Virus record (IMG/VR): IMGVR_UViG_3300030060_004838
Span: 1-64,000 of that record
Source: a virus
DNA length: 64,000 nt
Reading direction: 5' to 3' (one strand)
A program made the translations under genes and the position numbers. Each line of letters starts with the position of its first letter. Position 1 is the first letter of the stretch. Below are positions 8,946 through 30,911 of this stretch, in pieces. The notes under the pieces were generated by a model that saw nothing but the letters and a program-made list of their open reading frames with translations, did no database searches and had not been told where the DNA came from.

Positions 8946-11530
8946 CTAAATAACCCCTTAACTTTATACACAACTTCGGTTGATAAACCTAACTTATCTG
9001 CAATATCATTAAAGGAAGATTGGCTCTTTACTATATTATAAATATCTATACCATATAAATCAATATGATTTTCTTTTTCAATTACATCAACAACAAAGGA
9101 TATATCATCTATGTCTGAAATATCAAGACTTGCTTTGTATATTTGTTCGCCTCTCATCTTTCTAATTATATCTGTTGCTTCTAACATAGCGTGAGTAATT
9201 GGACCTGTTAATTTTAGATTACTACTTTTTAATCTCTTAATTAATCTTTCATTTTGAGTTTTAATACCTTTAATTGTTGATTCTCTAACAAATGTTTCCC
9301 ATTCAGAAGAATCTAATAACCTAACTAAACTTTCAACAGAAGAATTTGTTTCTTGTTGTTTTCTATTCCAAAAAGGTAAAGGTTCACCCATAAATTCTAT
9401 CTTTTTTAATTCTTCTTCTGATTCCGTTGCTTTAGCAATTTCGTATAAACTATCTCCAAACATAATAGTAGTACTGTCTATAATATCAGGCATTCTTACA
9501 TTATCATCTTCATCTACAATAGAGTCTACATGGGCAAAGAATTTTGTATAAGCATCAACAGCATCTTCAAATTGTGTGTTTAAACTATCACTATAATATA
9601 TCTGTTCTTTCTGTGATAATTTGTATAAAAATGAATTTATTTTAATATAGTCATCGAGTTCTACAATAGGTTCAGAACCTGCTGTAATTGCTCTCCTTGC
9701 CATACTTACATTACTACTTTGCAATATTTTAGGAAAGTCTTTGAATTCCTTAGATGTGTAAAATTCAGGTAAATCATCAAAAAGAACATTTTTACTTGTA
9801 AGGGGTTTAATATGGTATTCTTCTATCAATTTAATTAATGGGTCTATTTCTCGCATTCTTTGTATATTTGCTTCTGCTAACTTAGTTACTGTTGGTCTTG
9901 TAATACCACCTAAAAACTGATATGGTGTTCCTGTACCTTTACCCTGTCTACCTCCAAATTTAGGTTTATAGGGTTGCTCTAATAATTTTTCAACTTCTGC
10001 TTGTAACTCAATAAAACTACCAACATTTTTAAAGAAATTTTTAGTATTATTATTAATAAATTCTGAAGCATCTGAGTATTTATCGAATGTTTTTTGTTTT
10101 GGTCCAGCACCGTTTTCATAATAGAAAACTGTAAATGCAGCACTTATAGAATCAAAATATGCAACGGTTTCAGAATTATCCATTAAAGGTAAATAAAACT
10201 CATTTGCTTCAAGCATTATATTAACTGCTCTTGATTCTCTAAAATTATCTAAGAAATTTTCTAATTGTTTATCTACAATATTTTTTAAGTCTTTAGTAAA
10301 TTTTCCTAACTTACCTAATTCTAATTTTTCTTCAATTATTTCTTTAGCACTACTTAATATATTATCAGTATATTCTCCTGATATTTCATTGTTCTTAAAT
10401 AGAATAGAAAATAGTGGGTCTACATCTTTTGTAACCATACTTTCTCTAACTCTTTCTTCGGCTTGTTCTATTTCATCTGTCAAATCATCTGTAACTGTTG
10501 GGTCTATATAGCCTGTGATTCCCCCACCCTCATAATCTAAATCAGAACCCATAGCACTTCTTTGTCTTGCTACTGCTTCACCTGCTAAATCTTTTGTTCT
10601 TTTGTCTATTTCTTCAGGTATTTCTTTACCTAACATACTAAAGAATTTTCTAAATAGTTTAAGTGCTAATCTTTCATCAGATTCATCTTCTATTCTTACA
10701 GCACTAAATTTAATTATATAAGATGGAAAAATACTGTTAGAAGTTAAATTTCTAAAAACATCTCTATATGGATTTTCTTCCTCTCTTTCTTCAGTAATAT
10801 TTACGCCTCTTTGTCTGAATGCTGCTAATAAATCATCTTGTAGACCATCTATGGCTTCCACCGCTTGAGCAAAGGTATCAAATTTATCTTCTATACCCTG
10901 CCAATAATTATAAATTTTTAACCTTGATTCAACAGGCATTACATTTACATTTACTAATGCTTCTTCTAATAATTCTAAAGTTTCAAACTCAGCCACTTCG
11001 GTTCTTTTTAATTTCTTTTTTGTATCGCCTTTCTGTAATACATCTAATAATTTTTTAAAGGCATCTTTTTCTTCTGATGTTAGTACTTCTAAACCTGTCC
11101 TTACATTTTTACCAGCAGTTAGACCTTCGTTAAGTCTTTCTATAAGTTTGTCTTTATTTTGTAGACCATCGTATGTTAGTTCAATAATTCTTGCATTATT
11201 AATAGCATTGATAGAACCTTCTCTAAACCTTTTTCTATTTGTAGAAGGAACAACTTCAGTCATTGGTCTTTTATCAAACATAAAATATTGAAATAGAGTT
11301 TCAATGTTTGGACTTGTACCGAAGAAAAATTTACCGTCTTCTAAATATTCTTGAAGGTTGCTAATTAAAATATCAAATTGTTTATCGGTTAAAGTATATC
11401 CTTCTCCCTCTAAAGACTCTTTGAAACGGGTTCTTCTTGCATCAGACATTCTATCTCTTGATGCGGCATTTAAGAGTTGTTCTCTTAATTCTTCGGATAA
11501 ATCTGCTATGTCCATATTACTCCCCTCCAT
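8942..11530 (-). CDS. Large acidic hypothetical protein with C-terminal HTH (putative virion protein)
   Basis: 862 aa; ends SFNDIADKLGLSTEVVYKVKGLFR (HTH-like). Confidence 0.65.
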   Translation of the reverse strand: MEGSNMDIADLSEELREQLLNAASRDRMSDARRTRFKESLEGEGYTLTDKQFDILISNLQEYLEDGKFFFGTSPNIETLFQYFMFDKRPMTEVVPSTNRKRFREGSINAINNARIIELTYDGLQNKDKLIERLNEGLTAGKNVRTGLEVLTSEEKDAFKKLLDVLQKGDTKKKLKRTEVAEFETLELLEEALVNVNVMPVESRLKIYNYWQGIEDKFDTFAQAVEAIDGLQDDLLAAFRQRGVNITEEREEENPYRDVFRNLTSNSIFPSYIIKFSAVRIEDESDERLALKLFRKFFSMLGKEIPEEIDKRTKDLAGEAVARQRSAMGSDLDYEGGGITGYIDPTVTDDLTDEIEQAEERVRESMVTKDVDPLFSILFKNNEISGEYTDNILSSAKEIIEEKLELGKLGKFTKDLKNIVDKQLENFLDNFRESRAVNIMLEANEFYLPLMDNSETVAYFDSISAAFTVFYYENGAGPKQKTFDKYSDASEFINNNTKNFFKNVGSFIELQAEVEKLLEQPYKPKFGGRQGKGTGTPYQFLGGITRPTVTKLAEANIQRMREIDPLIKLIEEYHIKPLTSKNVLFDDLPEFYTSKEFKDFPKILQSSNVSMARRAITAGSEPIVELDDYIKINSFLYKLSQKEQIYYSDSLNTQFEDAVDAYTKFFAHVDSIVDEDDNVRMPDIIDSTTIMFGDSLYEIAKATESEEELKKIEFMGEPLPFWNRKQQETNSSVESLVRLLDSSEWETFVRESTIKGIKTQNERLIKRLKSSNLKLTGPITHAMLEATDIIRKMRGEQIYKASLDISDIDDISFVVDVIEKENHIDLYGIDIYNIVKSQSSFNDIADKLGLSTEVVYKVKGLFR

Positions 11531-13871: not shown

Positions 13872-14087
13872 TCACAATTGAGATTGTACTAATAGGACTA
13901 CTGCTACAAGTGTAGGAATAGCAATAAGAATTTGTTTCTTATACTGCTTTACTTTAGCAAGAATTTTATCAGCCTTCTTTTCACTAACAAGACCTAAATC
14001 TTCTGCTATATCAAGAGCATCTTCTACTAAATCCTCTACATCTTCTACTGTTTCTTTAATTTTATTTTCATCTACCATTTTATTCAC
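13872..14087 (-). CDS. Small membrane protein (C-terminal TM helix)
   Basis: Hydrophobic C-terminus ILIAIPTLVAVVLLVQ. Confidence 0.65.
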   Translation of the reverse strand: MNKMVDENKIKETVEDVEDLVEDALDIAEDLGLVSEKKADKILAKVKQYKKQILIAIPTLVAVVLLVQSQL

Positions 14088-14688: not shown

Positions 14689-15399
14689 TTACTCATCCCC
14701 TAAATCGTAATAAAAGTCATCTTTTCTATGAATATTAGGGTCAAACTGTTCAGCCTTATCTGTATGCCAACCAAATAAATAATTTTTTACACTTCCAGGT
14801 TTTTCAGTCATTCCCATAACTCCTAATTTTTTAATAATTTCTTGTTGTACTTCTCTAACTGTAACCTTTCTATCTTGAGCATTTACAAATTTATCAATAG
14901 CATTTCTAATTCTTTTATTAGGTATTTTCTTTTTTGCTTTAGATATACCTTCTCTATAACTATATGTTGTAGGGTATCTTCCTGATACAACAATATTTGA
15001 ATCTGATTCTAAGAATTTTCTTAGTCTTTTAGTGGTCATGTTTGAAGGAAATGTATCTTGTAAATGTCTTTGAATTTGTGCAATTGAAACTCTCGGGTTT
15101 GTTTTTATAAATTGTACAACAACATCTGTTTGTTTAGGTTTAGGTTTTCCTCCACGCTTTAAATTTTTTCTCCAAGATTCATCGGCTTTTCTTACACCCT
15201 TAACACCTATAATATCATATTCTTTTAATAATATTTTAAGACCTTGAAATATATTTTCACTATAATTTTCTCTTAACATTTTTAAAATTAGGCGAACATA
15301 TTCTTTATCGTTAGCACTAAATTTATCCATATTTTCTTCAGTTAATGTAATAAAACCTTCAACCTTTTCTTTATTTTTAAGAATTTTTCCCCAAGACAT
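14689..15399 (-). CDS. WxxILK-tagged protein with two wHTH-like modules
   Basis: Starts MSWGKILKN; internal VRKA/SWRKNLKR and ISKA junctions precede wHTH-like units. Confidence 0.6.
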   Translation of the reverse strand: MSWGKILKNKEKVEGFITLTEENMDKFSANDKEYVRLILKMLRENYSENIFQGLKILLKEYDIIGVKGVRKADESWRKNLKRGGKPKPKQTDVVVQFIKTNPRVSIAQIQRHLQDTFPSNMTTKRLRKFLESDSNIVVSGRYPTTYSYREGISKAKKKIPNKRIRNAIDKFVNAQDRKVTVREVQQEIIKKLGVMGMTEKPGSVKNYLFGWHTDKAEQFDPNIHRKDDFYYDLGDE

Positions 15400-15400
15400 A

Positions 15401-15640
15401 TTAACGCTCACCTTCTCTTTTTTCTAAAAATTGAAGCATACTTATCATTACTTTATCTAATTCTTGTTTCTTGTTTATCACTTCTTGAAGCATAGATATT
15501 AAAGTTTGGTCATCAACTTTTATAGCCAAATCTGCTGCTTTATCTAAATCCTTTGCATCTTCAAAACTTCTCTTAGCGATTCTTACTAAAATTGGTGCAA
15601 GGACTTTTTCCTCAACTTTTAATAAAACATCCCAACTCAT
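15401..15640 (-). CDS. Small WxxILK-tagged protein
   Basis: Starts MSWDVLLKV. Confidence 0.7.
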   Translation of the reverse strand: MSWDVLLKVEEKVLAPILVRIAKRSFEDAKDLDKAADLAIKVDDQTLISMLQEVINKKQELDKVMISMLQFLEKREGER

Positions 15641-16303: not shown

Positions 16304-16468
16304 TCAATCCTTTGCCATAAATGCATTTCTTGAACCTTCTTTTTCTTTTTTATCTTTTAGGGCTTCAAAATCTGCACCTGTAATTTTTGTTTTAGGTTCA
16401 GCCGCTTCAGCAATTTTCTTTTGCTTGGGGCTTAGTTTCTTTTCTTTTAATATATCTTTCCAACTCAT
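16304..16468 (-). CDS. 54-aa WxxILK-tagged peptide
   Basis: Not in the ORF track; MSWKDILKEKKLSPKQKKIAEAAEPKTKITGADFEALKD...; GGAG RBS. Confidence 0.7.
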   Translation of the reverse strand: MSWKDILKEKKLSPKQKKIAEAAEPKTKITGADFEALKDKKEKEGSRNAFMAKD

Positions 16469-16469: not shown

Positions 16470-17888
16470 TTATCTTCTCCTTAAAAATCTTCCAGCATCA
16501 GGGGCTTCCGTTCCTTGCCTTTGATTTTGATTTGCTAATCTTCTACCTTCATCTATTTTGTTTTTAATTTCTTGTAAAATTTGTAAAGTTAATGGTACTT
16601 TATCTTGATTATATCTATTTACTACTCTATTAGCAAAATAACTTTTGTTTTTTCTTGCCCCTGTTTTTTGTCCATATTGTCTATCTGTATCTTTAAAGTA
16701 TTTTTTTGCTGACCTATCTTGGAATTTGACACCTATTCCTTTTTCTATCTCATCATTTTTAAGAATATTTTGCCAATTAGTATTTTCTATTTGTAATTCA
16801 CCTTGTTGTTTCAAAACTAATCCGGGTTTTGATGTACCTTCTTTAGCCTTTGGAGTTTCATATGTCTTTACTTCTTCACCTAAAATTCTTAAAACTTCTA
16901 CAATAGTTTTATTTAAAGCAAGATTATTTTTTGGGAATCTTAATTTTACATTTGTTAGTTTTTCAACACCTTCTACTCTATCATATCCCTTAGCAAAATT
17001 TAGAAGTTTTGCTTCTTCTTCATTTCTTATCGCATAACTTTCATTAGTGAATGCAGCATTTAATCTATCTTTCATAGGTGCTCTTGATTTACCAGCAGGA
17101 TAAATATTAGGATTTTGTAATACTTCAATTACTTTTTCTTGTACACTTTTAATTTGTGCCAATTGTCTTGGACCTGCTGAGTTATTAAAAATAGCAATTC
17201 TATTACCATCACCCATTTTAATTTTATCTACTCCCTTTAGGGCTTTTCTTGCTATGGATAAAATACCGCCCTTACCCTCATCTGTTTCTCCTTCTCCTGT
17301 TATGGCTTGCCATAATGGAGGTCTTGCTTTCCCTGTACTTTTATTAGACCATTCATCTTTTGCAGTAGCGATTTTTATTTTACTATTAGGTTTATTTTTA
17401 TTAGCCCACTCAGCATATTCATTATATGCTTTTGTTCTATAATGACCGTAGACCTTTCCTCTTGTAATATCAGGCTCTTGTGGGTCATCAGTTTCATTGA
17501 ATTCTATAACTGTATCAAAAGGAATATTTCTTGGATTCCATTTACCTTTATCTCTTGTTAAAACATTTAACATACCATTTATTGCTTTTTCTAATTGCAT
17601 TCTATGTTCTGTTTCAATTGTATCTCCATCTAATATTTCTGTTAGGGCTTCTAATAAAATACCTAAACCTTCAATACTTCTTGCTTGGTCACGGGCATAT
17701 GTAGCATCACCATGACTTAGTACTGTTTCTAAAACAGTTTTAGGTTTATTTCCTCTTTTTCCTCCTACAATTCCCCATTCAGTACCTTTATTCCACTTAA
17801 CTTTCCAAGCGTCATAATCTCCCTTGATAGCACCAACATCAAATGTTTGGTCTACATTATCAAAATCTGTACCTTCAAATTTACTCAT
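16470..17888 (-). CDS. Hypothetical virion-block protein
   Basis: Likely start MSKFEG; internal NWQNILKN tag near the C-terminus. Confidence 0.65.
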   Translation of the reverse strand: MSKFEGTDFDNVDQTFDVGAIKGDYDAWKVKWNKGTEWGIVGGKRGNKPKTVLETVLSHGDATYARDQARSIEGLGILLEALTEILDGDTIETEHRMQLEKAINGMLNVLTRDKGKWNPRNIPFDTVIEFNETDDPQEPDITRGKVYGHYRTKAYNEYAEWANKNKPNSKIKIATAKDEWSNKSTGKARPPLWQAITGEGETDEGKGGILSIARKALKGVDKIKMGDGNRIAIFNNSAGPRQLAQIKSVQEKVIEVLQNPNIYPAGKSRAPMKDRLNAAFTNESYAIRNEEEAKLLNFAKGYDRVEGVEKLTNVKLRFPKNNLALNKTIVEVLRILGEEVKTYETPKAKEGTSKPGLVLKQQGELQIENTNWQNILKNDEIEKGIGVKFQDRSAKKYFKDTDRQYGQKTGARKNKSYFANRVVNRYNQDKVPLTLQILQEIKNKIDEGRRLANQNQRQGTEAPDAGRFLRRR

Positions 17889-19147
17889 CACTTTCCACAA
17901 CCGCAGGGTGTCGTTTTATCTCTACAATCTTTACAAGGTTTCTTTTTACCAAACATTCTATTACTAATATTTGGAGTAAAACCAGCATTCGTTGTCATTG
18001 TTGTTCCAAATTCTTTAGATAATAAATCTCTCCAACCGAATTCTCCTGTATATTGCTCGTTAGATTTAAACTCATCTTGAAATTTTCGTCTTGTTTCTTC
18101 ATCTTCTTCACCAAATTCTATTTCAGGTCTGTTTCTCATTTCTTCCGCTTCTTCTTGTGTTGTTTGGTCAGCAACTAATTCATTTGCTTCCATTCTTTTT
18201 TGCATATAAGGATAACGGAAAGTAAAAGCAAAAGCAACAGCACCTGTAAATTCTTTAATTAAACTAACAGTTTCAGATTTTGAAGCAAATCTTTGTACTG
18301 ATGATTTAATTGAATTAGAAATTTCTGCTGGTGTAACATCACTTTCACCGTCATTATCTAAATCAAATAAATCTATTGATGCTTGGTCTTGTGTTATTAC
18401 ATCTTGTAAATATTCATCTATATTAGATAATATTGATTTAACATCTTTTATAACTGTGGATTCTGCCGCACTCCATACATCATTTATAAATTCAGCGGGA
18501 ACTTCACCCATAGGGTCTACATCCATTAATTCAGACATTTCATCATCTTCAACATCAGCGTCAGCAGATGCTCTTACTGTTTTATAACTTGTATCAAATA
18601 TACTACTCATTAATTCTTCAGCCATTTTTAATGCTGCTGAGTAGGTTCTATTATAACCTGATGATGAGTATATTCTTTGTATGTTTGTCATTTCATCATT
18701 AAATTTAGGGTCTTTTGTAATTGCATCCATAAAACCTTCAAGTAGACTATCAATCATTTCTTTAGCAATAGTTACACCTAAATCTTTAATTTGATTTTTA
18801 AGTTGTGAAGGTTCTCTCCTTATAGCCCTAAATCCTCCCTGTTCTTCTGTTGATATATTAAAAGGACCAATACTATCTAACATATCTTCTAAAGGTTGTT
18901 CAAGAGCAACTTTAAACCAATTAACTAATTCTGTTATCTTAGGATTTTTAGGGTCATTTCTAAAATCTTGCATTCTTTTATCTCTTTCCTCACCCTCTAA
19001 TGGGTTACCTTGTTCATCTCTTGTAATAGGTTGCCTATCACTTCTAAAAGGTTCATCAACAAACCCATAACCTTCTATAAAAGCAGTACCATCAGGTTTT
19101 CTAAATTTATCACCATATTCTTTCAATAGTATATTTCTCCAATTCAC
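17888..19147 (-). CDS. WxxILK-tagged acidic protein
   Basis: Starts MNWRNILLKE; second tag GWRDLLSKE; C-terminal CxxC..CxC. Confidence 0.7.
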   Translation of the reverse strand: MNWRNILLKEYGDKFRKPDGTAFIEGYGFVDEPFRSDRQPITRDEQGNPLEGEERDKRMQDFRNDPKNPKITELVNWFKVALEQPLEDMLDSIGPFNISTEEQGGFRAIRREPSQLKNQIKDLGVTIAKEMIDSLLEGFMDAITKDPKFNDEMTNIQRIYSSSGYNRTYSAALKMAEELMSSIFDTSYKTVRASADADVEDDEMSELMDVDPMGEVPAEFINDVWSAAESTVIKDVKSILSNIDEYLQDVITQDQASIDLFDLDNDGESDVTPAEISNSIKSSVQRFASKSETVSLIKEFTGAVAFAFTFRYPYMQKRMEANELVADQTTQEEAEEMRNRPEIEFGEEDEETRRKFQDEFKSNEQYTGEFGWRDLLSKEFGTTMTTNAGFTPNISNRMFGKKKPCKDCRDKTTPCGCGK

Positions 19148-19299
19148 TTTTCATTCCTCCTTAGTGCTTTGGTTAAAGTATCAATAATATCTAAAGGCAT
19201 ACCTAATTCTTTACCTTTTTTAGTAAAGGCTTTAAGTGCTGATTCCCAATCAGTAATTTCTTCCTTTGTTATGCTTTTTAGGTATTCTTCCCATTTCAT
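19144..19299 (-). CDS. 51-aa doubly tagged peptide
   Basis: Not in the ORF track; MKWEEYLKSITKEEITDWESALKA...; overlaps both neighbours by 4 nt. Confidence 0.7.
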   Translation of the reverse strand: MKWEEYLKSITKEEITDWESALKAFTKKGKELGMPLDIIDTLTKALRRNEK

Positions 19300-20694: not shown

Positions 20695-21559
20695 GTAATT
20701 CCTCCAATAATTCAAACATTGGTTTATCTAAATTTGGCTCAACATCTATTTTATCCCTTCTTAATGATTCAGAAACTGTACTATATTCTGAGTCTTCTAA
20801 TCTTCCATTATCTACTAAGTTGTCAAGATGTGTTTCTCCTTTAGAAGTTATACTTGGGAAGCCCTCTTTTTTAAAAGTTAAATAACCTTTGCTAATTAAT
20901 CCTACTACTGTTTTTTCATTTTTAGACCACTCTCCAAAAAAGTGCCTCCAAGCATCAGATAGTTTCCAATTAGGATTTCTATTTCTTTTTGACTTTTTAA
21001 GTAATTTTAAACCAATATATTCTCTAAGTTTTACATTTCTAAATGTTTCATAACCATAATATATCCCTAACGGACTATTTCTATTAATAGTAATATAAAT
21101 CCAATTACCATCATAGGTATGAACAAAGTGAACTAATACTTCATGTCTTCCTAAATCAACACTAAATTGACCTGCTGCTAATTTCATTTCATCTCCTTGT
21201 GGTTTCAAAGCCCAACGGTCTGTTAAACCCCAAAATCTAACTAAACCTAATTTGTATAAGTGTCTTTGTACATTTAATTTATTAGCAATAGGGACAGGGT
21301 TCATTCTTTTTAAATCAAAAACACCAATAAAATTTATACTGTAATCACTACTTTGTCTAACTGTTGGGGAATTGTCTAATGATACCATTATAGTATCATA
21401 CTTCCATGTTTTAGAATAAGTGGTTGTTTGTCCACTTTCATCTTTATAATTATTAATTGCTATGGCTTTATCTTTTATATATTTTTTTAATTTATCAGGT
21501 AGTACAGAAAGTGCCACATAAAAATAGCCACCTGAACCTCTCGGTGTTAATTTTTTCAT
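20681..21559 (-). CDS. Hypothetical protein
   Basis: 292-aa ORF, no recognisable motif. Confidence 0.6.
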   Translation of the reverse strand: MKKLTPRGSGGYFYVALSVLPDKLKKYIKDKAIAINNYKDESGQTTTYSKTWKYDTIMVSLDNSPTVRQSSDYSINFIGVFDLKRMNPVPIANKLNVQRHLYKLGLVRFWGLTDRWALKPQGDEMKLAAGQFSVDLGRHEVLVHFVHTYDGNWIYITINRNSPLGIYYGYETFRNVKLREYIGLKLLKKSKRNRNPNWKLSDAWRHFFGEWSKNEKTVVGLISKGYLTFKKEGFPSITSKGETHLDNLVDNGRLEDSEYSTVSESLRRDKIDVEPNLDKPMFELLEELHDLE

Positions 21560-23172
21560 TCTACCCTCTCCAAATTTTCAGCAGGTATTCCACCTTCACG
21601 AACAAATGTAATTGCATTAATTCTAATATCTTTATGAAGGACAGGTTCTTTTAGGTTTTTAGTTCTAACTCCTACAACACCTACATTAGATTCTGGTATG
21701 CCTAATTCCTTTGCCCTTCTTTTAGCAAATTCTAATGCTTCTTCTTTACTTTCAGTTGTATAAGTTATTCTTTCAACATTTCTCAATTCTTTAGGTATGT
21801 GTTTATTACTTCTTGTGCGAGTATAACCTCCTGTAATACCTTCTCTTAATATTCCTTCAATATCTAATGTTCCATGATATTCTGTGATTTCTCCTAATGG
21901 ATTAACTGACTTTTTTAGGTAACTATCTAAATCATCTTGTGAGCCTGCCCAATCTGATGCAATCCCAATAATTCTATCATACATTCCTTCTGTCGTTGAG
22001 TTAAGAATTGATATTATATCTTTTAAATCCGATTCATATTTTTCAGGCTTATATCCTTCTTGTAAATCTTCAAGTATTTTTTCTTTATCTACTACCATTT
22101 GAAAATCTTTAGCAACATGAGTTGTTAATTGTACATTAGATGCCGTAGGCCATTCACTAACTGATTGATTTATATCATACCCCATCTCAGATAAAACATC
22201 AAATGTATTAAATCTGTAATAATCCATATTAAACTCTACATCTTTTTCCCATGTTGTTTTAGACAAAATTGCCAATAAAGCACACGCATCTTTTTCAGAA
22301 ATATTATCAGGTGCGGCATATATATAATCAACCATAATAACATGTCTTTTATCTTCTGGTAATTTTAAATATGGGCACAAGAATGATTTATCATAATTTC
22401 TATGCATGTGTGATGAACCTGTAAAATTATAAGAAAAAGTTTGATTCGTAATTTTATTATCAGCATAATCAACAAAACCATATGCTTTACCAACATCAAC
22501 AAGATAATCAATTTGATTTTCTATCACATCTACTATTTTCCTATAAACTTGAATACATCTTGGTGGTGGTTCATCTTTAACAGGTTTTATTTCTTTTTCT
22601 TTTTCAGGTAGTGGTGTTGTTTTTATTCTTGAAGTTCCTCTTTGTGTAGGTTTTAATTCAGCCTTTTTAATATCATATCTATTAACCATCTTTTGCCAAA
22701 ATCTTATTGATTCTGGTTCAATACTACCCACTATCAAATCAAGTTCGTATGGATTTTCTTGTCTTTCTTCTATTTTTCTTGTAATTATTTTTAGGCTATG
22801 TTCACCTACTGCTAATGCTTGTTTAAATGGTACTTCAATGTTTAATATATTTTCATAAATTTGTTTAATTAATTCATCACCTTTTTCTTTTAACTCATTA
22901 ATTAATTCTTGTACTGCTATTTCTCCAAGCCCTTGTCCTCTAACATCTTCTCTTGTAGCAAAGGTATCTAATAACCAAAATAGTTTATCTGTTCCTTTAT
23001 TATAATCTAAAAATACTGTGGCTCTTACTTTTTTATCTTTAGATATAAATTTAATATTAAAATCATTTTCTGCAAATTTGACTAACCATTCAAAACCATA
23101 TTGGTATTCTCTATCTTCTTCAGGATATTCTTGCCCTACATATACAGGTGCTTTTAGAATATTCCTCCACAT
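21556..23172 (-). CDS. Tagged polyprotein: GNAT acetyltransferase + PLPEK module + ADP-ribosyltransferase-like domain
   Basis: MWRNILKA; GNAT REDVRGQGLG and IRFWQKM; C-terminal YHGT..GILREGI..YTT..ALEFA..GGIPAENL (Tpt1/KptA-type ART fold). Confidence 0.7.
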   Translation of the reverse strand: MWRNILKAPVYVGQEYPEEDREYQYGFEWLVKFAENDFNIKFISKDKKVRATVFLDYNKGTDKLFWLLDTFATREDVRGQGLGEIAVQELINELKEKGDELIKQIYENILNIEVPFKQALAVGEHSLKIITRKIEERQENPYELDLIVGSIEPESIRFWQKMVNRYDIKKAELKPTQRGTSRIKTTPLPEKEKEIKPVKDEPPPRCIQVYRKIVDVIENQIDYLVDVGKAYGFVDYADNKITNQTFSYNFTGSSHMHRNYDKSFLCPYLKLPEDKRHVIMVDYIYAAPDNISEKDACALLAILSKTTWEKDVEFNMDYYRFNTFDVLSEMGYDINQSVSEWPTASNVQLTTHVAKDFQMVVDKEKILEDLQEGYKPEKYESDLKDIISILNSTTEGMYDRIIGIASDWAGSQDDLDSYLKKSVNPLGEITEYHGTLDIEGILREGITGGYTRTRSNKHIPKELRNVERITYTTESKEEALEFAKRRAKELGIPESNVGVVGVRTKNLKEPVLHKDIRINAITFVREGGIPAENLERVE

Positions 23173-23287: not shown

Positions 23288-23405
23288 TCGTATCACCATT
23301 CATCGCTTCAGGTTTGCCATGTTTAACCCAACATTCTTTACAAAACCCAAAAGGATAATTAGCATCTGTATTATAACAACGACCACAATAAACAAATTCT
23401 TTCAT
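23277..23405 (-). CDS. 42-aa zinc-finger peptide
   Basis: MKEFVYCGRC...FCKECW; not in the ORF track; ATGA overlap with the upstream gene. Confidence 0.6.
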   Translation of the reverse strand: MKEFVYCGRCYNTDANYPFGFCKECWVKHGKPEAMNGDTIAQ

Positions 23406-23893
23406 TTTCTACGCTTCCTTTTCTCTTTAGTCTTTCTCTTTTGTGCGTTGATGAAAGTCCTATAAATACCTGCCGCAGATTTTTTACCCATTTCTCTTGC
23501 CCTTTGTTCCATAGCAATAGCCGCTTGAGTTTTATGTGCATGAGTTCTACTACTTCTTTTTATTTTTGCTACTGAGCGTTTTGCATCTTTTACAGTTTTA
23601 AATCCTAAACCATGTATTGTTCCTTTTGGATTTTCATCTGTATATAAATCTGAATGTTTTTTAGAATTAGCGGGTTGCCCTTTCTTTCTTGGAATTCTTT
23701 TTGCTTTAAGAATATCTTTCCATGTAATAACATCTTCAGATTTTTTATAACCTGAAGCATATGCAGCAGCCGCTTGGCGTTCAGCATCTTTACGATTTTT
23801 ATAGACTTTACCACGCTTACCCCATTTATAGCCGCCTTTCACTTTTCTTATTGGTATATCAACCCCTCCTTTTGAACCAACCATGAAGGCCAT
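23402..23893 (-). CDS. Basic two-module protein with internal TWKDILKA tag
   Basis: PIRKVKGGYKWG..YASGY module, then RIPRKKGQ..HSDLYTDENPKGTI module; true start uncertain. Confidence 0.65.
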   Translation of the reverse strand: MAFMVGSKGGVDIPIRKVKGGYKWGKRGKVYKNRKDAERQAAAAYASGYKKSEDVITWKDILKAKRIPRKKGQPANSKKHSDLYTDENPKGTIHGLGFKTVKDAKRSVAKIKRSSRTHAHKTQAAIAMEQRAREMGKKSAAGIYRTFINAQKRKTKEKRKRRK

Positions 23894-24872
23894 ACTTTTC
23901 TTCTAAACTAAAAGTTCCTTTTCTTCTTTTCTTTTTCTTTCCTCTTTTACCTGCTCGTCTTTTGTAAGTTTTACAGGCTGAACAAGTAGGTCTGCATCTT
24001 CTCTTTCTTCCTTTAGATGCATCTTTTCTTCCACAAGGTTTCGGACCACCTTTATCATTACAAGTTCCGCAAGCAATCCAACCTTTGAATATTTTTTCTT
24101 CCCATGACTTTTTAATATCGCTATCTAAATAAGCATCAGCAATCATTATTCCTATTTCTTCACCTGCTTCTATATCACTTGGATAATGACTTCCCATAAT
24201 TACTCTTGATAATGCTATACCTTCAGCCATATTAAATAATTCATCTTCTTTTTCAGGGTGTTCTTCAGCAAGCATTTTTGCTAAAGCATATGCTTCAATT
24301 GCATGACCACTCGGAAATGCTGGTGTATCATCAGTATCTGTTACAGATTTAATTTTATCTGAAATTTCATAAGGTCTTGGTCTTTTGTATTTCATTTTTA
24401 ATTGCATTGTATAAATATCTACATCTTTAATGAATTGCTCATAATCAATTAAATTAGCCCCTACTATATCTAACATCATTTCATTATTATTTTGGTCTAA
24501 ATCATCTTGAATATCTTTGTCCATTTCATACTTTTCCATTATGTTAAGGACTTCAGATATTTCACTTTCGTTAGAAGGAAAATCTAATTCAGGAAATTTT
24601 ACCTCAAAGGAGGGTTTGCTATTTAGTAATTTTTTTTTACTGTCTGAAAGTTCTTTCATCCATTTAGATTCTGCCTTTTTAACAGAATTACCCCAATTTT
24701 TAGCACCTTTTTTTCTACATTGTACTAATGCGCCACTTGCATATGCCGAAGGCCATTTTTTATATCTTCTTCTAACTTTGTAATAACAGGCATCTTGTTT
24801 TTTACCTGATTTTTGCGTCTTACGCCTACGAAGTTTTTTCTTCTTCGCTTTCAAAGTTTCTTCCCAAGACAT
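23859..24872 (-). CDS. Tagged polyprotein with a central PAP2/haloperoxidase-family phosphatase domain
   Basis: K..KRPRP, FPSGH and SRVIMGSHYPSD PAP2 motifs, flanked by basic Cys-rich modules; junctions VKKA and IKKS. Confidence 0.75.
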   Translation of the reverse strand: MSWEETLKAKKKKLRRRKTQKSGKKQDACYYKVRRRYKKWPSAYASGALVQCRKKGAKNWGNSVKKAESKWMKELSDSKKKLLNSKPSFEVKFPELDFPSNESEISEVLNIMEKYEMDKDIQDDLDQNNNEMMLDIVGANLIDYEQFIKDVDIYTMQLKMKYKRPRPYEISDKIKSVTDTDDTPAFPSGHAIEAYALAKMLAEEHPEKEDELFNMAEGIALSRVIMGSHYPSDIEAGEEIGIMIADAYLDSDIKKSWEEKIFKGWIACGTCNDKGGPKPCGRKDASKGRKRRCRPTCSACKTYKRRAGKRGKKKKRRKGTFSLEEKYGLHGWFKRRG

Positions 24873-24876: not shown

Positions 24877-25197
24877 TCACCACAATTTTTTACACGCTAA
24901 ACATTTAGGGGTTGTAATTCTACCTTTACATTGGTCGCAATTATGTCTTGCTCTAAAATTTCTTCTTCTCTTTCTACTTCTATGAGTTCCGCCACCACGA
25001 TTCTTTCCTGAACGCTTGTAATTACCATACCCTTTAGCACCCGCATGAATCTTTTTACCTTCATGCGTTAGCATCATAATTTTTTTACCTGCTCTATCAG
25101 AAGGATAAACACGGCCTACTCTCATATCCTCTTTTTTCTTGGGCTTGCGCTTTTTTGTTTTGCGCTTTTTTCTTTTAAGAATATCCTCCCAACCCAA
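24877..25197 (-). CDS. Tagged, very basic protein (putative DNA-binding core protein)
   Basis: MGWEDILKR; KKIHAGAKGY..RRRNFRARH..C motif. Confidence 0.65.
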   Translation of the reverse strand: MGWEDILKRKKRKTKKRKPKKKEDMRVGRVYPSDRAGKKIMMLTHEGKKIHAGAKGYGNYKRSGKNRGGGTHRSRKRRRNFRARHNCDQCKGRITTPKCLACKKLW

Positions 25198-25199: not shown

Positions 25200-25451
25200 T
25201 TATTCCTCCTTTAAATAATAATCTCCATGTTCATGTTCAGCCAAATAATCTTTATGGTCTAAAGCATCACTAATAACATACTTCAAATATACTTCTTCAA
25301 AACCTTCCAATTTTTTTCCTGCTTCGATAAAGTTTTTCATTCCAGCGGCACCGCCTTCATCTTTTAAAACTTTTTTAATAAATTTTTCATAGACTTTATA
25401 TTTTTTATTTTCAACGGCCTTTAGTTTTGCCTTTAAAATTTCTTCCCACAT
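25200..25451 (-). CDS. Small WxxILK-tagged protein
   Basis: Likely start MWEEILKA. Confidence 0.7.
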   Translation of the reverse strand: MWEEILKAKLKAVENKKYKVYEKFIKKVLKDEGGAAGMKNFIEAGKKLEGFEEVYLKYVISDALDHKDYLAEHEHGDYYLKEE

Positions 25452-25456: not shown

Positions 25457-25777
25457 TCACATATTATTAATTATATTATCATACATAGACATAATCTCTT
25501 TTGTAACTGTATTCCAATTTACATCATCAAGAGAATATCCATCACCTACAAATCTACGACTCCATTCAGCATCCATATTAACTAAGTTTCTTGCATTACC
25601 CCATGTTCTTTGGAATGAATCTCTAATTGTTTTATAATCAACAGGCATACCTAACCTTTTATTCATAAAAGACATAGTTTCTATATGATAAGGGATAGTA
25701 GTGGCTAAAGATTCTTTCATCATATCTAATAATACCTTAGTGGCATCGTCTTCTTTTCTAAGAATATTATTCCACAT
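25457..25777 (-). CDS. Small WxxILK-tagged protein
   Basis: Starts MWNNILRK. Confidence 0.7.
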   Translation of the reverse strand: MWNNILRKEDDATKVLLDMMKESLATTIPYHIETMSFMNKRLGMPVDYKTIRDSFQRTWGNARNLVNMDAEWSRRFVGDGYSLDDVNWNTVTKEIMSMYDNIINNM

Positions 25778-26534
25778 CTTCTTCCCTCGCTTCTAATTCG
25801 ATATTATACCAAATAATTTCGTCTATTACTATGTTATCATCATTTATTAAATAAACATATGCATCATAACTGCCATTAGTAAAACTACCTAAAGACATAT
25901 TTCTATATTCAGCATCTCCATTATAAACATCCCATACATCTATTGAATAGTTATAAGGTTCTTCGTATGTTCCATTAGCATCATATACTAAAAATTGTAC
26001 TTCTACCTGTTGTACTTCATCACAATTAACATCAACATCATATGTAAATTCTAAAGATGTATTTGCAATTTTATCTAAGTAATAATCATAGAATAAAGGT
26101 TCACATTCTTCATAAGGTTCACATGAACCATCATCTACATTTGCTTCAGGGTCATAGTTTTCAGCAGCATCATTTGTACAACCCCAAATCATTTCATCAT
26201 ATTCATTACCTTCATCATCTTCCCAAAACCATTCATCGTCATCTCCATTACCTGCGGGAGTAAGGTCAATAATACCTGATAATTCTAAACCACTTGTTGA
26301 TAGTAGAATGAGTATTGGTATTAGGGCGGTTAATAATTTATGAGTTTTATTTGCCATTTCTGTTGCCCTATCAATTGCTGAAGTATTTTCTTTAATAGCA
26401 TTAGAATTATTTAATTTACCATCGTCAAGTAAATCAGCAATAACATCTCCTTTTGAACGACCTGTTAATTTAGCAATCTCATCAGCATTTTCTAAGGAAG
26501 TCTGTATATCAGGGGTATCACTCATTTTTAACAC
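25767..26534 (-). CDS. Membrane-anchored acidic protein with a GCTN..A.NY...A..DDGSC motif
   Basis: One TM helix (LLTALIPILILLS), motif GCTNDAAENYDPEANVDDGSC, beta-rich C-terminus. Confidence 0.7.
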   Translation of the reverse strand: MLKMSDTPDIQTSLENADEIAKLTGRSKGDVIADLLDDGKLNNSNAIKENTSAIDRATEMANKTHKLLTALIPILILLSTSGLELSGIIDLTPAGNGDDDEWFWEDDEGNEYDEMIWGCTNDAAENYDPEANVDDGSCEPYEECEPLFYDYYLDKIANTSLEFTYDVDVNCDEVQQVEVQFLVYDANGTYEEPYNYSIDVWDVYNGDAEYRNMSLGSFTNGSYDAYVYLINDDNIVIDEIIWYNIELEAREEDVE

Positions 26535-27006
26535 TCCATAGATTTTTCCAAAGTTTATGTTGTTTATAATTTTCTTGTAAATATTGTAATATTTCTTTTT
26601 TACTTGGCGAGTTAAATTTCATACTTTCTGTAATATTATTATATATCATTTCAAATGGTGTATCTTTAGATACGAGATTATCAACCATTGTTTTCCAATT
26701 AGATTTTATGATACTTTTTTTAATTAATCTATATTCTTTAGTTGGTCTACTACTTCTACCCGTAGTAGTTTCTTTAGTAGTTTCTCTACCTTCAGCCCTA
26801 CCTTGTCTAACTAATTTATCTAATACCATTCTTAATTTTAAATTACTAAATATACCTGACATTTTACCTCCATGTCGGGTTTTTAGATTACCTAATACTT
26901 CATCAACAGAATAAAATCTTTCTTCATCTATCCCATATTTTTCAACATAATTTAATTTAGTTGGGGAAAGACCTTTGCCACCTTTTAATATATGTAGCCA
27001 ATTCAT
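26518..27006 (-). CDS. Tagged wHTH-like two-module protein
   Basis: MNWLHILKG; internal LIKKSIIKS junction. Confidence 0.65.
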   Translation of the reverse strand: MNWLHILKGGKGLSPTKLNYVEKYGIDEERFYSVDEVLGNLKTRHGGKMSGIFSNLKLRMVLDKLVRQGRAEGRETTKETTTGRSSRPTKEYRLIKKSIIKSNWKTMVDNLVSKDTPFEMIYNNITESMKFNSPSKKEILQYLQENYKQHKLWKNLWSVKNE

Positions 27007-27048: not shown

Positions 27049-28347
27049 TTAACGAATACTATCAGGGAAAGTACTTGTGGGTGTATCTTCATAAACAACA
27101 CTTATATTTCCAAATTCTATTTTTATCCTATCAATGCATTGTGTTATTTTTTGCTTTAAATTTTCTTTAAATTCTGCCCATTTTTTATCATCAAACTTCA
27201 ATTTATAATCTTCTTTATAAGTTAAGTTATGTTTTCTCCAATCAAGATAATGATATGGATTATAAGATGCTGGATTCATACCCGTTCTATTCATAACTAT
27301 TTCTATTCCTAAATCATGACCTGTTTCTGAATGAACTTCAGTCATCAATACAAATTGTATAAGCATATCATTACTTCTCATTTTCCCCTGAATAGAAATT
27401 ATTTCCTCTACTGCATAGTGTAGGCCGGTTGTATAATTTTCTGAAAAGTATCTTATTTTTGCTGTTTCTATAAAATGACACCAATCAGAAACAGAAATGT
27501 TATTAAAATATTCAGTATTTCTCCACCATGCAACATAATTTACCTTTTTTCCTGTAATATATTTACTTAATTCCCCTAACTGTAACAACGCTGACCCTAT
27601 TCTAAATTTACAATCGTCATCCTCATCGTCTTTTTCAGGTAATGGAGTCTTTTTAGTTTTAACATTCTGTCTACCAATTTCTACTTGTGATTTTTTTATA
27701 AGTCCAGGAAAAATATTATCACAAGTTTCCCAAGCAAATGAAGGTAATCCATAATTTTTCATAGTTGGACTACCTATTGCTTTAGACCATTCTTTAAATG
27801 CCTTTACCCAACGATTATATGTTTCACACATAGACTTTATTGCTGGTCTTCCACCAACTTTAGGGTTATATCCATCCCATCTTTCATAAGGAATTGTCTC
27901 TCTCCCTACTTGTACATGTTTTGCCATATAGAAATAATGAACAGTTGCTTCAAAATGCGATATTCCCTGACCCCTATCACCAAATAAACCAAAAGAAAAA
28001 GACAATTGTACCCTTTCTTTACCATTATTTACCTTTCCTTCAACCCATACATATGTAGTAATATGGTCTACAAATGAATTTGCTATATGTTCATCTCCAT
28101 TTACAGTAACTTTCATAGTATCTTTAAATTCACACCAATATTCTTCTTTTGGCATATCAAATCTAACACTATCGAATTGAGGCATATACAAAGTAGCATT
28201 AGAATCCCAAGCCGTCTTTAAATTTAAAAAATCATTAATTAGTTTTTCCCAAAAAGGCCAACATTCTTCAGGCTCATCTTTTTCGGGTAAAGCCCTCCTT
28301 CTTGTTTTGACATTTTGCCTACTAACATTAATTAAATTCTTCTTCAT
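27049..28347 (-). CDS. Two-PLPEK-module polyprotein
   Basis: RQNVKTRRRALPEK..C and IKKSQVEIGRQNVKTKKTPLPEK..C. Confidence 0.75.
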   Translation of the reverse strand: MKKNLINVSRQNVKTRRRALPEKDEPEECWPFWEKLINDFLNLKTAWDSNATLYMPQFDSVRFDMPKEEYWCEFKDTMKVTVNGDEHIANSFVDHITTYVWVEGKVNNGKERVQLSFSFGLFGDRGQGISHFEATVHYFYMAKHVQVGRETIPYERWDGYNPKVGGRPAIKSMCETYNRWVKAFKEWSKAIGSPTMKNYGLPSFAWETCDNIFPGLIKKSQVEIGRQNVKTKKTPLPEKDDEDDDCKFRIGSALLQLGELSKYITGKKVNYVAWWRNTEYFNNISVSDWCHFIETAKIRYFSENYTTGLHYAVEEIISIQGKMRSNDMLIQFVLMTEVHSETGHDLGIEIVMNRTGMNPASYNPYHYLDWRKHNLTYKEDYKLKFDDKKWAEFKENLKQKITQCIDRIKIEFGNISVVYEDTPTSTFPDSIR

Positions 28348-30911
28348 TTATTCCACCACATTACTTCAGCAGGTATAATTTCATAATTATCCAACATATT
28401 TTCTACTGCTATGTCACATATATACTTATCTTTTATAGTACCTTCATAGTAATCATCATATAATGTTGCAACAAAACCTATCATACTTTTTTGACTTGAA
28501 TCATGACTATCCATAAAATTGTTTCTCATAGAAGCACTTGTAAATTGACAAGCAAGAACATAATCCTGTCCTTTATATTCAAAGGGGTATTGTTTATCAA
28601 CATAAGTTATTATGATTGAACCTGTTGTAAAAGTTTGTTCACCTGATACTACTTGATTAATCGCCTCTATCATTTTACAACAACAATACTCTTTTAACTG
28701 CCCATCTATTATTTTAAAATCTTCATATTTTAAATCAATAGTAGTAGAAGAATTAGCAACTTTAGCATCTAACAATATTTTCTTAAGTAATACTGCTTTT
28801 CTAAAAGCAATATTTTCCCACCTTGCTACTTCATCTCTACAATCTGATTTTTCTTTTTCAGGTAATGCCTTCCTACGAGTTCTTACATTTTGACGGCCTG
28901 TTTGTATTTGGCTCTTTTTGATAGGAGAACCTAATATTGAATTCCATTGACTTAGAACACTATCTAAATTTAATTCGCTTAGTATCATTTTCATGTGGTC
29001 TTTTTGTTGTACATATAGTTCATTTTCATATGCGAAGCCATAACCCCAACTTACTCTAATAATCCATTTTCCTTTTTCATCATCACCGTCTAACATAAAA
29101 TGACCTATGGTTTGAGTTTTAGGGTTTGTTGCGGCAGCCCTAATACCATAATCATAGCCTGTTCCACCTTTTTCCTTAGTATCTTTTTTATAATATTCTG
29201 TAATACCATTAAAATTATCATCGGGTTTTTCTGACCATAATTCTATTGCTTTACATGCAGACCATTCAGTTATATTTTCAGGACTATCAACTGTTACAAC
29301 AAATTTTGTACTATAAGTAAAAGGTACTGATAAAGTATATTTTGTTGTATTATCATAATCTGAATATTCTGTCTTTAAATCTATCTCCGTGACTTTGTTA
29401 TTATATTTTGAAAATCTGTGATTAGAACCATAAACGGGAGGGTCGTTTAAATTAATATCATATACCAATTGTTTTAATATAGTACCAATAATATCTCTTA
29501 AACTTTCAACATAATCAGCCAATCTTAAAAGTTTAGGTCTACATTCTTCTTCTTCCTTTTCGGGTAGTGGTTTTCTAATAATTTTAGTGTCTTGTCTACC
29601 TTGCGTTCTCAAATCCGCTTTAGTAATAGAGCCTCCATATTCACCTCCCCTATACCAAAGTTTATTTTTTCTAACTTCATCATTCATTTTAATTAAATTT
29701 TCTTGATATTTGGTCATGTAATTAGACTTATTGGGTATTTCTACATCATAATCTCTCTCTAACATACTTAACCATGCAAATAATGTATCAGCATGATGTA
29801 CTAAACCATCTTCATAATAATCCACATTTTCAGTAGATGCGTAACTTGCAATTGAATCTTCTCCAAAAGTATGATAAAGTTCACCATCGTTCAACCAATT
29901 TCTTTTATCAATAAAAGCATGTGCTCTATATATTATTACGCCTTCTCCATCTTTTAATGCCCACTCATGTTTGCAAGCAAAAGTAATGGTAAAATCTTTC
30001 ATTTCTAAATTCATTGTAAATGGAACAGTATTTCCAGCAGTTAAAATTCTTGGCCTCATAATTCCTACTTTATCTTTGTAATTAATATTATTACACCAAA
30101 ATTGATTATCTTTTTTTGATTCAGCACTTATTACATTAAACCTATACTTATCTTTAAATTCCCTACCATAAAATTCTTCTACTATTTTATGTATTTTAGG
30201 ATAACACCTTTCATCATCCTTTTCGGGTAGAGGGGTTCTTTTAGTTTTTACATTTTGCTTAGGTACAGTAATTTGATTCTTTGATATATCACCATCACCT
30301 ACCATGTCATAAAGTATTCTTTGTGCTTGCGTTAAATCTCCTGAACTGTTTTTTATTTTTGTATTAAAGGGTTTCATCTGTTCTAATTTATCAGCGAAAT
30401 TTAAACAGTTTTTACTTGTTTCAAATAATTTTTCTACATACCCTTTAGTAAAAACATTAGGTTCTACTTCCCAATTTATCATTACTGTTCCTAACATATG
30501 TGAAGAATAACCTTCAAAATCTATTTCTGCATACTGCCAAACTCTCCATTTATTAAACCTTTTAGATATATTCCAAGATAGATAAAGTTGTACATTATCG
30601 GTTAAAAAAATATAATACCTAACACTAAATATATCAGAGTCATCTTTAGTATCAGGATGAATTATTAAATTATTATTTCTATCCTTAACCATTTCACACC
30701 AATCTTCATTTGAGAATTTAGAAAGCCAATTACTATCTCTTGCATGTCTTACAGTAGGTCTTTGTATTTCGTTACAATCAGCCCATGCTTGAAATATATC
30801 ATCTATAATTTTATAGCAATCAGGGTCTTCTTTTTCAGGAAGTGGGCTTCTTCTTGTCTTTACATTCTGTTTAGGAATAGTAATTTGATTCTTCAGAACA
30901 TCCTCCCACAT
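28344..30911 (-). CDS. Tagged four-PLPEK-module polyprotein
   Basis: MWEDVLKN, then four ~200-aa units each opening with K[NSA]..[RK]Q.[VT][KR]...[PA]LPEK...C. Confidence 0.8.
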   Translation of the reverse strand: MWEDVLKNQITIPKQNVKTRRSPLPEKEDPDCYKIIDDIFQAWADCNEIQRPTVRHARDSNWLSKFSNEDWCEMVKDRNNNLIIHPDTKDDSDIFSVRYYIFLTDNVQLYLSWNISKRFNKWRVWQYAEIDFEGYSSHMLGTVMINWEVEPNVFTKGYVEKLFETSKNCLNFADKLEQMKPFNTKIKNSSGDLTQAQRILYDMVGDGDISKNQITVPKQNVKTKRTPLPEKDDERCYPKIHKIVEEFYGREFKDKYRFNVISAESKKDNQFWCNNINYKDKVGIMRPRILTAGNTVPFTMNLEMKDFTITFACKHEWALKDGEGVIIYRAHAFIDKRNWLNDGELYHTFGEDSIASYASTENVDYYEDGLVHHADTLFAWLSMLERDYDVEIPNKSNYMTKYQENLIKMNDEVRKNKLWYRGGEYGGSITKADLRTQGRQDTKIIRKPLPEKEEEECRPKLLRLADYVESLRDIIGTILKQLVYDINLNDPPVYGSNHRFSKYNNKVTEIDLKTEYSDYDNTTKYTLSVPFTYSTKFVVTVDSPENITEWSACKAIELWSEKPDDNFNGITEYYKKDTKEKGGTGYDYGIRAAATNPKTQTIGHFMLDGDDEKGKWIIRVSWGYGFAYENELYVQQKDHMKMILSELNLDSVLSQWNSILGSPIKKSQIQTGRQNVRTRRKALPEKEKSDCRDEVARWENIAFRKAVLLKKILLDAKVANSSTTIDLKYEDFKIIDGQLKEYCCCKMIEAINQVVSGEQTFTTGSIIITYVDKQYPFEYKGQDYVLACQFTSASMRNNFMDSHDSSQKSMIGFVATLYDDYYEGTIKDKYICDIAVENMLDNYEIIPAEVMWWNK

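Follow-up and report, generated by a model that had tools for sequence, protein, structure and literature searches.

A tryptophan-lysine tag at the start of otherwise unrelated magrovirus proteins: a candidate anchor-and-release label for procapsid cargo

In bacteriophage T4, the internal proteins IPI-III and Alt carry a capsid-targeting sequence (CTS), which is removed by the prohead protease gp21 (PMC3012670, PMC7411985; Mullaney & Black 1996). In phage P1, the 30 N-terminal residues of DarB suffice to load a reporter (PMC9024508). Here we describe a short N-terminal peptide, typically the eight residues M-S-W-x-x-I-L-K and hereafter called the tag, which recurs on many proteins of a magrovirus (IMG/VR record IMGVR_UViG_3300030060_004838, 95,975 bp, with an 8-bp overlap shared by the record ends). 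The window, the stretch of 64,000 nucleotides that was analysed, covers bases 1-64000 of this record. Magroviruses rank with the most abundant viruses of archaea in the surface ocean. On balance we lean towards the explanation that the tag is an anchor-and-release label for procapsid cargo.

According to this explanation, the M-x-W-x-x-[IL] half of the tag would copy a motif from the C-end of the scaffold and hold proteins on the inner side of the assembling shell, and the [ILV]-x-K half would be a cut site of the HK97-type S78 prohead serine protease. Cleavage would part the anchor from the body, in scaffold-type proteins and cargo alike. The tagged proteins would join the procapsid as it assembles and be clipped behind the Lys; they would then stay alongside the DNA in the head and probably reach the host cell during infection.

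The tag, its distribution and its conservation

Fourteen of the 24 minus-strand genes in a block running from 30911 to 11517 start with M-(x)-W-x-x-[ILV..]-L-K, compared with none of the approximately 80 gene starts elsewhere in the genome (Fisher 2.5e-11). The original prediction had listed these 14 N-termini together with seven internal or C-terminal copies; all were recovered, the N-termini on the minus strand and at the positions given below for each gene. Twelve of the tagged genes start with ATG, the one at 19147 with GTG, and the one at 25197 with TTG. The start at 19147 reads W-R-N-I-L-L-K, with one additional Leu. An in-frame stop is found 2-28 codons upstream of each tagged start, and a Shine-Dalgarno-like GGAGG or GGTGA lies ahead of most of the 14.

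A six-frame scan of the entire genome with the core pattern W..[ILVMFYTQ][LI][KR] gave 33 matches. In real genes, 13 N-terminal and three internal matches were found, all on the minus strand between 11.5 and 31 kb, and the sole real-gene match outside the block was inside a 2550-aa protein. The same scan gave zero matches in the plus-strand replication genes, in agreement with the earlier observation that none of them starts in this way, and none of the structural genes at 67-96 kb begins with the core pattern. Two plus-strand starts, MNWTEKYRP of the RFC gene and MNWKKLG of a 51-aa protein, have only M-N-W in common with the tag.

The bodies behind the tags had been described as unrelated. 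This holds for most of them, with about 12 body families among the 14 proteins, but modules recur in two pairs. An RQNVKT..PLPEK module is common to the proteins of 855 and 254 aa, and those of 162 and 83 aa fall into the same BLAST cluster, linked via intermediates. Pfam and PHROGs searches with the tagged and neighboring proteins left most of them without a family, and only GNAT, PAP2 and a weak HTH were matched.

Related loci show the same picture on a larger scale. Using a block protein and the terminase large subunit (TerL) as queries, 85 related loci were retrieved from IMG/VR (labeled L001, L002, etc.); a TerL query against a GenBank phage collection returned zero magrovirus records. 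The 85 loci hold 274 tagged open reading frames (ORFs), 242 of them unique, and the bodies of these fall into 97 BLAST clusters once the first ten residues are removed. One short N-terminal peptide is thus common to otherwise unrelated proteins, both in the 14 genes here and in the relatives. Its consensus is M-[S/N/T/K or nothing]-W-[E/K/Q/F]-[D/N/E]-I-L-K. Conservation stops exactly at the Lys, and the following position is essentially random. Five complete, distant magroviruses, with a major capsid protein (MCP) about 52% identical, have 3-7 strict copies of the tag each, on a single strand, and a reversed-pattern control gave 0 matches in these five genomes. Of 229 tagged proteins found in other loci, just 93 have a homologue in the present genome, which points to a high turnover of the tagged proteins.

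The original prediction had also stated that the conserved unit is a peptide, and the codons confirm this. Serine in the tags is encoded by AGT (62 times) and by TCT or TCA (19 times), Leu by TTA, CTA, CTT, TTG and CTC, and Ile by ATT or ATA. Such synonymous variation indicates selection on the peptide. A Shine-Dalgarno-like 4-mer precedes 195 of 211 distinct tags. The tags sit at borders where modules shuffle, split and fuse between genomes, as could be expected if the shared 24 nt served in recombination or translation and the peptide were incidental. Against such a nucleic-acid signal, the use of AGT next to TCN, of five Leu and three Ile codons and of three start codons leaves the DNA less conserved than the peptide, and the motif is retained in-frame within proteins and at C-tails. 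We find this alternative barely credible.

The tagged proteins have a median length of 111 aa (n = 242), and their pI is above 9 in 36% and below 5.5 in 39% (n = 242). A membrane-like segment was predicted in 0 of the 242, compared with 9 of the 101 ORFs of the present genome, four of these nine being untagged genes of the block. With 14 proteins here and no fewer than 97 body families among the sampled relatives, the putative cargo set would consist of soluble proteins throughout, many of them small and about one third very basic.

Likeness of the tag to head-protein sites

The present genome encodes an S78 prohead serine protease beside an HK97-fold MCP, both on the minus strand and outside the window. 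The protease, fused to an acidic coiled-coil scaffold, lies at genome positions 92765-94072 (L007:12765-14072; PF04586 1e-10, phrog_23555), and the MCP at 91420-92724 (L007:11420-12724; phrog_24667 1e-26, PF17236). The end of the tag, [ILV]-x-K, has the same pattern as conserved sites in the protease, the MCP and the scaffold. In the protease, K25 in EFAVLK/G (a slash marks a putative or known cut) is invariant in 56 orthologues and stands just before the catalytic domain. In the protease-scaffold, I-x-K is conserved about 40 aa from the C-end, and VIAK or xLK directly precedes the C-tail in this subgroup. In the MCP, K29 in NNLLK/AYG is invariant, behind a stretch of variable length and sequence. 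An AlphaFold2 model of the MCP (25-row alignment) had a mean pLDDT of 37 and was unusable for placing K29 in the fold, and the papers searched for cleavage positions in haloarchaeal virus MCPs yielded nothing usable. As a point of reference, the HK97 gp5 sequence reads TFNK103/S104. The S78 protease of HK97 cuts after K103, which is the maturation cut of gp5, and prohead proteases of the S78 type act inside procapsids.

The tags themselves also show constraints around the Lys. Arg takes the place of Lys in 14 tags from at least seven families, and in 13 of these 14 a Lys comes next (ILRK), so that [ILV]-x-K is restored one step later. By comparison, a Lys directly follows the tag in 14% of all cases (Fisher 1e-11, at least six independent families). 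Proline after the tag Lys was found in 0 of 242 tags, with about 9 expected (p ~9e-5). The strictness of the Lys, the exclusion of Pro, and the end of conservation at the Lys fit a cut after this residue, and [ILV]-x-K is probably the cut site of the S78 head protease.

The Trp half of the tag resembles the tails of scaffold proteins. A position-specific scoring matrix (PSSM) for M-x-W-x-x-I, built from the tags of other genomes only, was scanned over 57,606 six-frame positions. The top ranks were taken by four real tags and by two plus-strand starts with M-N-W only and no Ile. Rank 7 was the C-tail of the protease-scaffold (EMSWDEIN, GEMSWDEINDLVREVQG), and rank 8 the tail of a 76-aa protein (KMDWSEID, DTIAKMDWSEIDELVVKMAGEQ). 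The Trp is invariant in 56 of 56 scaffold tails (EMSWDEINDLV here), and the pattern I-[AS]-K-M-D-W-x-x-[IL]-D of the 76-aa family is conserved in about 40 loci. The scaffold thus ends in a conserved C-terminal peptide with VIAK and I-x-K nearby upstream, as a putative separation site. The Met two residues ahead of the Trp is conserved even where it is no start codon, and may therefore be part of the recognized motif. The order of the two elements is mirrored: in scaffold-type proteins the putative cut site is followed by the W-motif at the C-end, and in the putative cargo the W-motif comes first and the cut site second, both at the N-end. Contact with the shell is made by the C-end of the protease or scaffold in HK97, P22 and herpesviruses, and by this analogy the W-motif would be the shell anchor. 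Co-folding of the MCP with the 54-aa tagged protein gave no answer (score 0.00), which counts neither way.

A binding tag need not be meant for the shell. It could address another partner, such as the portal, the terminase, a chaperone, or a replication or assembly compartment, and so organize proteins in the infected cell. The 211-aa protein upstream of TerL, which ends in KAWDIIKGR, and the location of the block beside a control region, a possible site for early genes, would suit this alternative. It is at odds with the presence of the motif in the C-tail of the protease-scaffold, the very part that contacts the shell in the three systems named above. Furthermore, the motif is always coupled to a protease-type site, and the tagged genes are always co-oriented with, and upstream of, the head genes. 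We regard another binding partner as quite unlikely.

Protein fusions show how the two halves behave separately. Genes that are separately tagged in relatives are fused in the present genome, and the converse also occurs. For example, the 337-aa PAP2 protein corresponds to two tagged proteins of L001, of 51 and 278 aa. In L045, an 87-aa protein begins with a tag that lines up with the internal SWEEKIFKG of the PAP2 protein. Eight junctions could be projected onto the present genome. All eight have [ILV]-x-K, for which the chance at a fixed position is about 0.02, but only three of the eight have the Trp. This suggests that the cut site is needed everywhere, and the W anchor once per chain, a split that a two-part signal would predict.

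The same junctions also speak for a simpler alternative, in which the tag is a processing signal only: a site marking module borders for a viral or host protease, perhaps in the cytoplasm, with the Trp as an extension of the site and no capsid addressing. The full set of [ILV]-x-K at junctions, the strict Lys, the Pro that never comes next, and a motif that works internally as well as N-terminally are all in line with it. Yet without an addressing role, trimming seven or eight residues from the N-terminus would have no obvious purpose. The Trp is near-invariant at N-termini, lost at most junctions, and absent from the sites in the protease, the scaffold and this group's MCP, so it seems to be needed once per chain and not once per cut. 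Moreover, M-x-W-x-x-I recurs in scaffold C-tails, and S78 proteases act in procapsids. Processing without addressing is, in our judgment, unlikely.

The DNA ligase of the structural module offers a further case of fusion. It is a single 712-aa ORF across the record ends (window 1-285, genome 94114-95975, L007:14114-15975, minus strand). Its order is N-domain, RILK/M, ligase domain, DLWKEELGK and C-domain, which reads like a three-part polyprotein. L076, L078, L079 and L083 encode the C-domain on its own, as a tagged gene, and the ligase may itself be head cargo.

A second magrovirus group (group 2; loci L169-L248 and L275-L279) was retrieved from other IMG/VR contigs by their MTAFDxAW starts. 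The tag of this group, drawn from 370 distinct N-termini, has 12 residues, M-T-A-F-D-x-A-W-x-[LIV]-[VL]-K. In five near-complete genomes of group 2, the protease has F[IL]LK/S and the MCP propeptide reads ...NAWAY.GTDLLK/A. The scaffold has [IL][QV]K/S about 35 residues from its end, and its tail reads ...[LI][DE][GA]WRA[LV]E.L. The group-2 tag appears to follow the same logic as MSWxxILK. The residue before the Trp is small (Ala/Gly) in both tag and tail of group 2, and is Ser, Asp or Asn, after Met, in the present group (group 1). This covariation of tag and tail between the groups is suggestive.

Group 2 also bears on a possible link to ubiquitin-like proteins (Ubl). The tag Lys could be an acceptor for a viral Ubl (Bil-like or SAMP-like), or W-x-x-I could be an Atg8-type Ubl-binding motif (LC3-interacting region, LIR), of which W-x-x-[ILV] is the core. 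The replacement of Lys by Arg only where a Lys comes next would suit an acceptor, and a ThiF-type E1 is encoded in the present genome (45.9-46.2 kb) and in five of five complete relatives with the same tag. Since all of these group-1 genomes have the E1, co-occurrence within group 1 is no test of such a link, and group 2 is. In five of five near-complete group-2 genomes, which have the analogous tag, no E1 was detected by protein search or Pfam ThiF, and the tag and an E1-Ubl system therefore do not co-occur throughout. In addition, the Lys sites are at classical maturation positions (N-end of the MCP, N-end of the protease, before the scaffold tail), and Pro is excluded from the next position. 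A Ubl link is very improbable.

The original prediction had interpreted the tag as an address akin to the T4 CTS, which loads proteins into the head for ejection into the host. What could be read directly from the genomes agrees with the first part of this claim: a tag conserved at the peptide level, a distribution limited to a co-oriented block that lies upstream of the genes for terminase, portal, protease and capsid, halves that resemble sites of head-assembly proteins, and the behavior at junctions. Loading and ejection would be further steps beyond these observations. The presence of the tag on homologues of a 738-aa protein and of the ligase C-domain, which are encoded in the head module, also fits an address label of the T4 CTS kind. 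The semi-specific peptide search proposed earlier as a check on cleavage is flawed, as a cut after Lys is indistinguishable from a tryptic cut.

Several points weigh against an anchor-and-release label. Binding, packaging, cleavage and ejection of the tagged proteins are all inferred from sequence. The full eight-residue PSSM gives the scaffold tail no score, and only the first half of the tag matches. In this Lys-rich proteome [ILV]-x-K is a common tripeptide, so that the match to head-protein sites draws its weight from where they lie and how well they are conserved, and none from rarity. The tagged block adjoins a divergent control region, beside which phages often keep early genes. In group 2, tail and tag align only if a shift of one residue is allowed. 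Finally, the haloarchaeal virus HVTV-1 (L282, NC_020158.1), the closest cultured relative with an MCP 26% identical, has no N-terminal W-tags in record positions 50-100 kb, so that from the 50 kb scanned no model virus vouches for the mechanism. As a separate observation, the HVTV-1 protease-scaffold (record positions 73933-75846) ends in ...AEVQK/SWEQEDEP..., faintly like a magrovirus tail, with a hydrophobic-x-Lys followed by S-W.

The tagged block and its surroundings

The GC content of the genome is about 31%, with a change of coding strand at 31-36 kb. Replication genes are on the plus strand between 36 and 67 kb. The minus strand is a single long gene train from 30911 down to 1, which resumes at 95975 and runs down to 67323. 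It starts with the tagged block (30911-11517), followed by an 862-aa and a 211-aa protein, TerL, an HNH-like insert and the portal. After the portal come proteins of 86, 738, 76 and 177 aa and the ATP-dependent DNA ligase ORF across the record ends, and then the S78 protease-scaffold fusion, the HK97-fold MCP and the tail genes. This order agrees with the published magrovirus layout, including the ligase within the structural module (PMC5434244).

All features described below are on the minus strand. The first gene of the block encodes an 855-aa tagged protein (28344..30911; MWEDVLK/NQ) with four tandem units, each opening with RQNVKT..PLPEK..C, and with the internal junctions GDISK/NQ and SPIKK/SQ. 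A 432-aa protein of the RQNVKT..PLPEK type (27049-28347) starts with MKKNLINVSRQ, compared with MWEDIIKNQISIGRQ in its L001 homologue, which looks like a decayed tag. The 162-aa tagged protein (26518..27006; MNWLHILK/GG) has an internal SIIK/SNW, and L051 has a separate gene whose N-terminal tag aligns with it. Four untagged genes of the block (68, 119, 79 and 255 aa; 13872-14688 and 25767-26534) encode membrane-like segments, and the three small ones, which are adjacent, resemble a membrane cassette of the holin or another type.

Further down, a 106-aa tagged protein (25457..25777; MWNNILRK) has the Arg variant with the compensating Lys one residue on. It is followed by an 83-aa tagged protein (25200..25451; MWEEILK/AK) and by a second 106-aa tagged protein with the TTG start (24877..25197; (M)GWEDILK/RKKRK), which is very basic and Cys-rich. 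The 337-aa tagged protein (23859..24872; MSWEETLK/AK) consists of a basic N-domain, a PAP2 phosphatase domain and a C-module. It has the junction remnants NWGNSVKK/AESKW and SWEEKIFKG, and its modules are separately tagged genes in L001 and L045. A 163-aa basic protein (23402..23893) has an internal full tag, TWKDILK/AKRIPRKK (W codon 23722), and in L002, L003 and L005 its body begins at the tag. Two small proteins between 23402 and 25197 are extremely basic: the Cys-rich 106-aa protein is protamine-like, and the 163-aa protein has KRK runs. Together with the basic N-domain of the PAP2 protein, they are candidates for DNA-condensing internal head proteins.

The 538-aa tagged protein (21556..23172; MWRNILK/AP) has a GNAT acetyltransferase domain (PF00583, 8e-5), a PLPEK module and a C-domain. 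A 254-aa tagged protein (19930..20694; MTWNEQLK/KDQIQVGRQSTK..PLPEK) and a 51-aa tagged protein (19144..19299; MKWEEYLK/S), which has a second weak copy, DWESALKA, come next. The 419-aa tagged protein with the GTG start (17888..19147; (M)NWRNILLK/E) has orthologues in L001-L005 that begin with MSWKDILK or MNWRNILK. A 472-aa protein (16470..17888) is untagged at its N-terminus and has an internal NTNWQNILK/ND (W codon 16775) 93 aa from its end. The 54-aa tagged protein (16304..16468; MSWKDILK/EKK) shows the exact consensus. The block ends with tagged proteins of 79 aa (15401..15640; MSWDVLLK/V), 236 aa (14689..15399; MSWGKILK/N; weak HTH match, internal junction remnants GVRK/ADESWRKN and GISK/AKKK) and 781 aa (11517..13862; MSWKLILK/E), the last being conserved and tagged in L001, L002, L003, L005 and L031.

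Just upstream of TerL, the 211-aa protein (8310..8945) has the tag-like C-terminus ...MMKAWDIIKGR. Some of its orthologues also end tag-like, and others bear a C-terminal extension beyond KAWDIIKGR. Its position is the usual place of a small terminase subunit. Directly downstream of the tagged block, the portal/HNH/TerL stretch (3868..8304) holds TerL (6889-8304; phrog_38 1e-53), the 465-aa HNH-like insert between portal and TerL, and the portal (3868-5508; phrog_18178 2e-71).

The 738-aa post-portal protein (1423..3639) is untagged here, and its homologues in L012, L020, L022 and L023 begin with MSWQLILK or MSWLDILK, which ties the tag to the head module itself. Its assignment as an LPD39 polyvalent-protein domain (ESM Atlas, 0.83) was confirmed neither by Pfam nor by a PF18858 search of the genome, and was dropped. 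The 76-aa scaffold-like protein (1196..1426) has NVLLK/AG and the C-tail DTIAK/MDWSEIDELVVKMAGEQ, which is conserved in about 40 related loci. With a coiled coil, the MCP-like NVLLK/AG and the scaffold-like tail IAK/MDWSEIDELV, it could act as another small scaffold, or as a decoy for the same binding site.

Implications and comparison with described systems

A description of the tag was not found in the main magrovirus papers (PMC5434244, PMC11706807), and a literature search turned up no proteomics paper on a magrovirus. If the anchor-and-release label holds, about one seventh of the genes of an abundant uncultured ocean virus group would receive their first functional label, as head cargo that is probably injected. 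No earlier capsid-addressing signal would then have been proposed for an archaeal virus, and this one would be built on an HK97-type Lys-cutting protease rather than on one of the T4 type. A gene start of M-x-W-x-x-I-L-K would then be a simple rule for finding candidate effectors in marine metagenomes, and [ILV]-x-K a predicted cleavage rule with which the mature forms of magrovirus head proteins could be annotated. Another possible use of the tag is as a handle to bring foreign proteins into HK97-fold shells.

A broader hypothesis is that the magrovirus capsid is a general protein-delivery device, in which any soluble protein with an eight-residue copy of the scaffold's putative shell-binding motif would be packed, released by an HK97-type protease specific for Lys, and injected along with the DNA. 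We consider this delivery hypothesis tentative and rather doubtful as it stands. Were it true, the at least 100 tagged families with fast turnover would be hidden host-takeover or anti-defense effectors against Poseidoniales.

HK97 has a maturation protease of the same family S78, gp4. It reportedly has a C-terminal encapsidation tail and cuts after Lys103 of gp5, as is said to have been described by Duda, Oh and Hendrix in 2013. The two systems have in common the protease family PF04586, and by our reading would also share a cut after Lys with a hydrophobic P3 and a C-terminal tail that holds the encapsidation signal. In the magrovirus, unlike in HK97, the protease is fused to the scaffold, and the tail motif is copied to the N-termini of many proteins; we know of no cargo set in HK97 that reuses the encapsidation signal. 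At the assemblin/scaffold M-site of herpesviruses, a protease-scaffold precursor loses its C-terminal shell-binding tail by a cut a few dozen residues from the end, which parallels the I-x-K upstream of the W-tail. This likeness is in logic only, as the herpesvirus cut is Ala/Ser, and to our knowledge herpesviruses have no family of N-terminally tagged cargo.

Encapsulin peptides and P1 DarB share with the tag, as we read it, the principle that a short terminal peptide sends diverse cargo inside an HK97-fold shell. The cargo-loading peptides of encapsulins are usually C-terminal and uncleaved. The DarB signal differs from the tag in that it is not a motif common to many proteins.

A further parallel is the T4 CTS. 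Both are short N-terminal peptides on otherwise unrelated, fast-evolving and often basic proteins, with the known or putative cargo genes beside head genes, and both end in hydrophobic-x-charged, which is the motif of the head protease in T4 (L/I-x-E) and putatively so here ([ILV]-x-K). Targeting was demonstrated by experiment in T4, whereas here it is inferred. The T4 protease belongs to S77 and has Glu at P1, whereas here the protease is of the S78 HK97-type with Lys as the putative P1, and the host is an archaeon. The magrovirus system also differs in its larger scale (14 tagged proteins per genome, at least 97 body families), in its likeness to the scaffold C-tail, and in the tags at fusion junctions. 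A relationship to the T4 CTS and its S77 protease gp21 was not found, the magrovirus protease being S78 (PF04586 1e-10) and MSWxDILK being unlike the T4 CTS, MKTYQEFIAE. Judging by these features, the putative system is best described as an HK97-type, Lys-cutting, scaffold-tail-mimicking counterpart of the T4 CTS in archaeal viruses, and not as a member of the T4 family.

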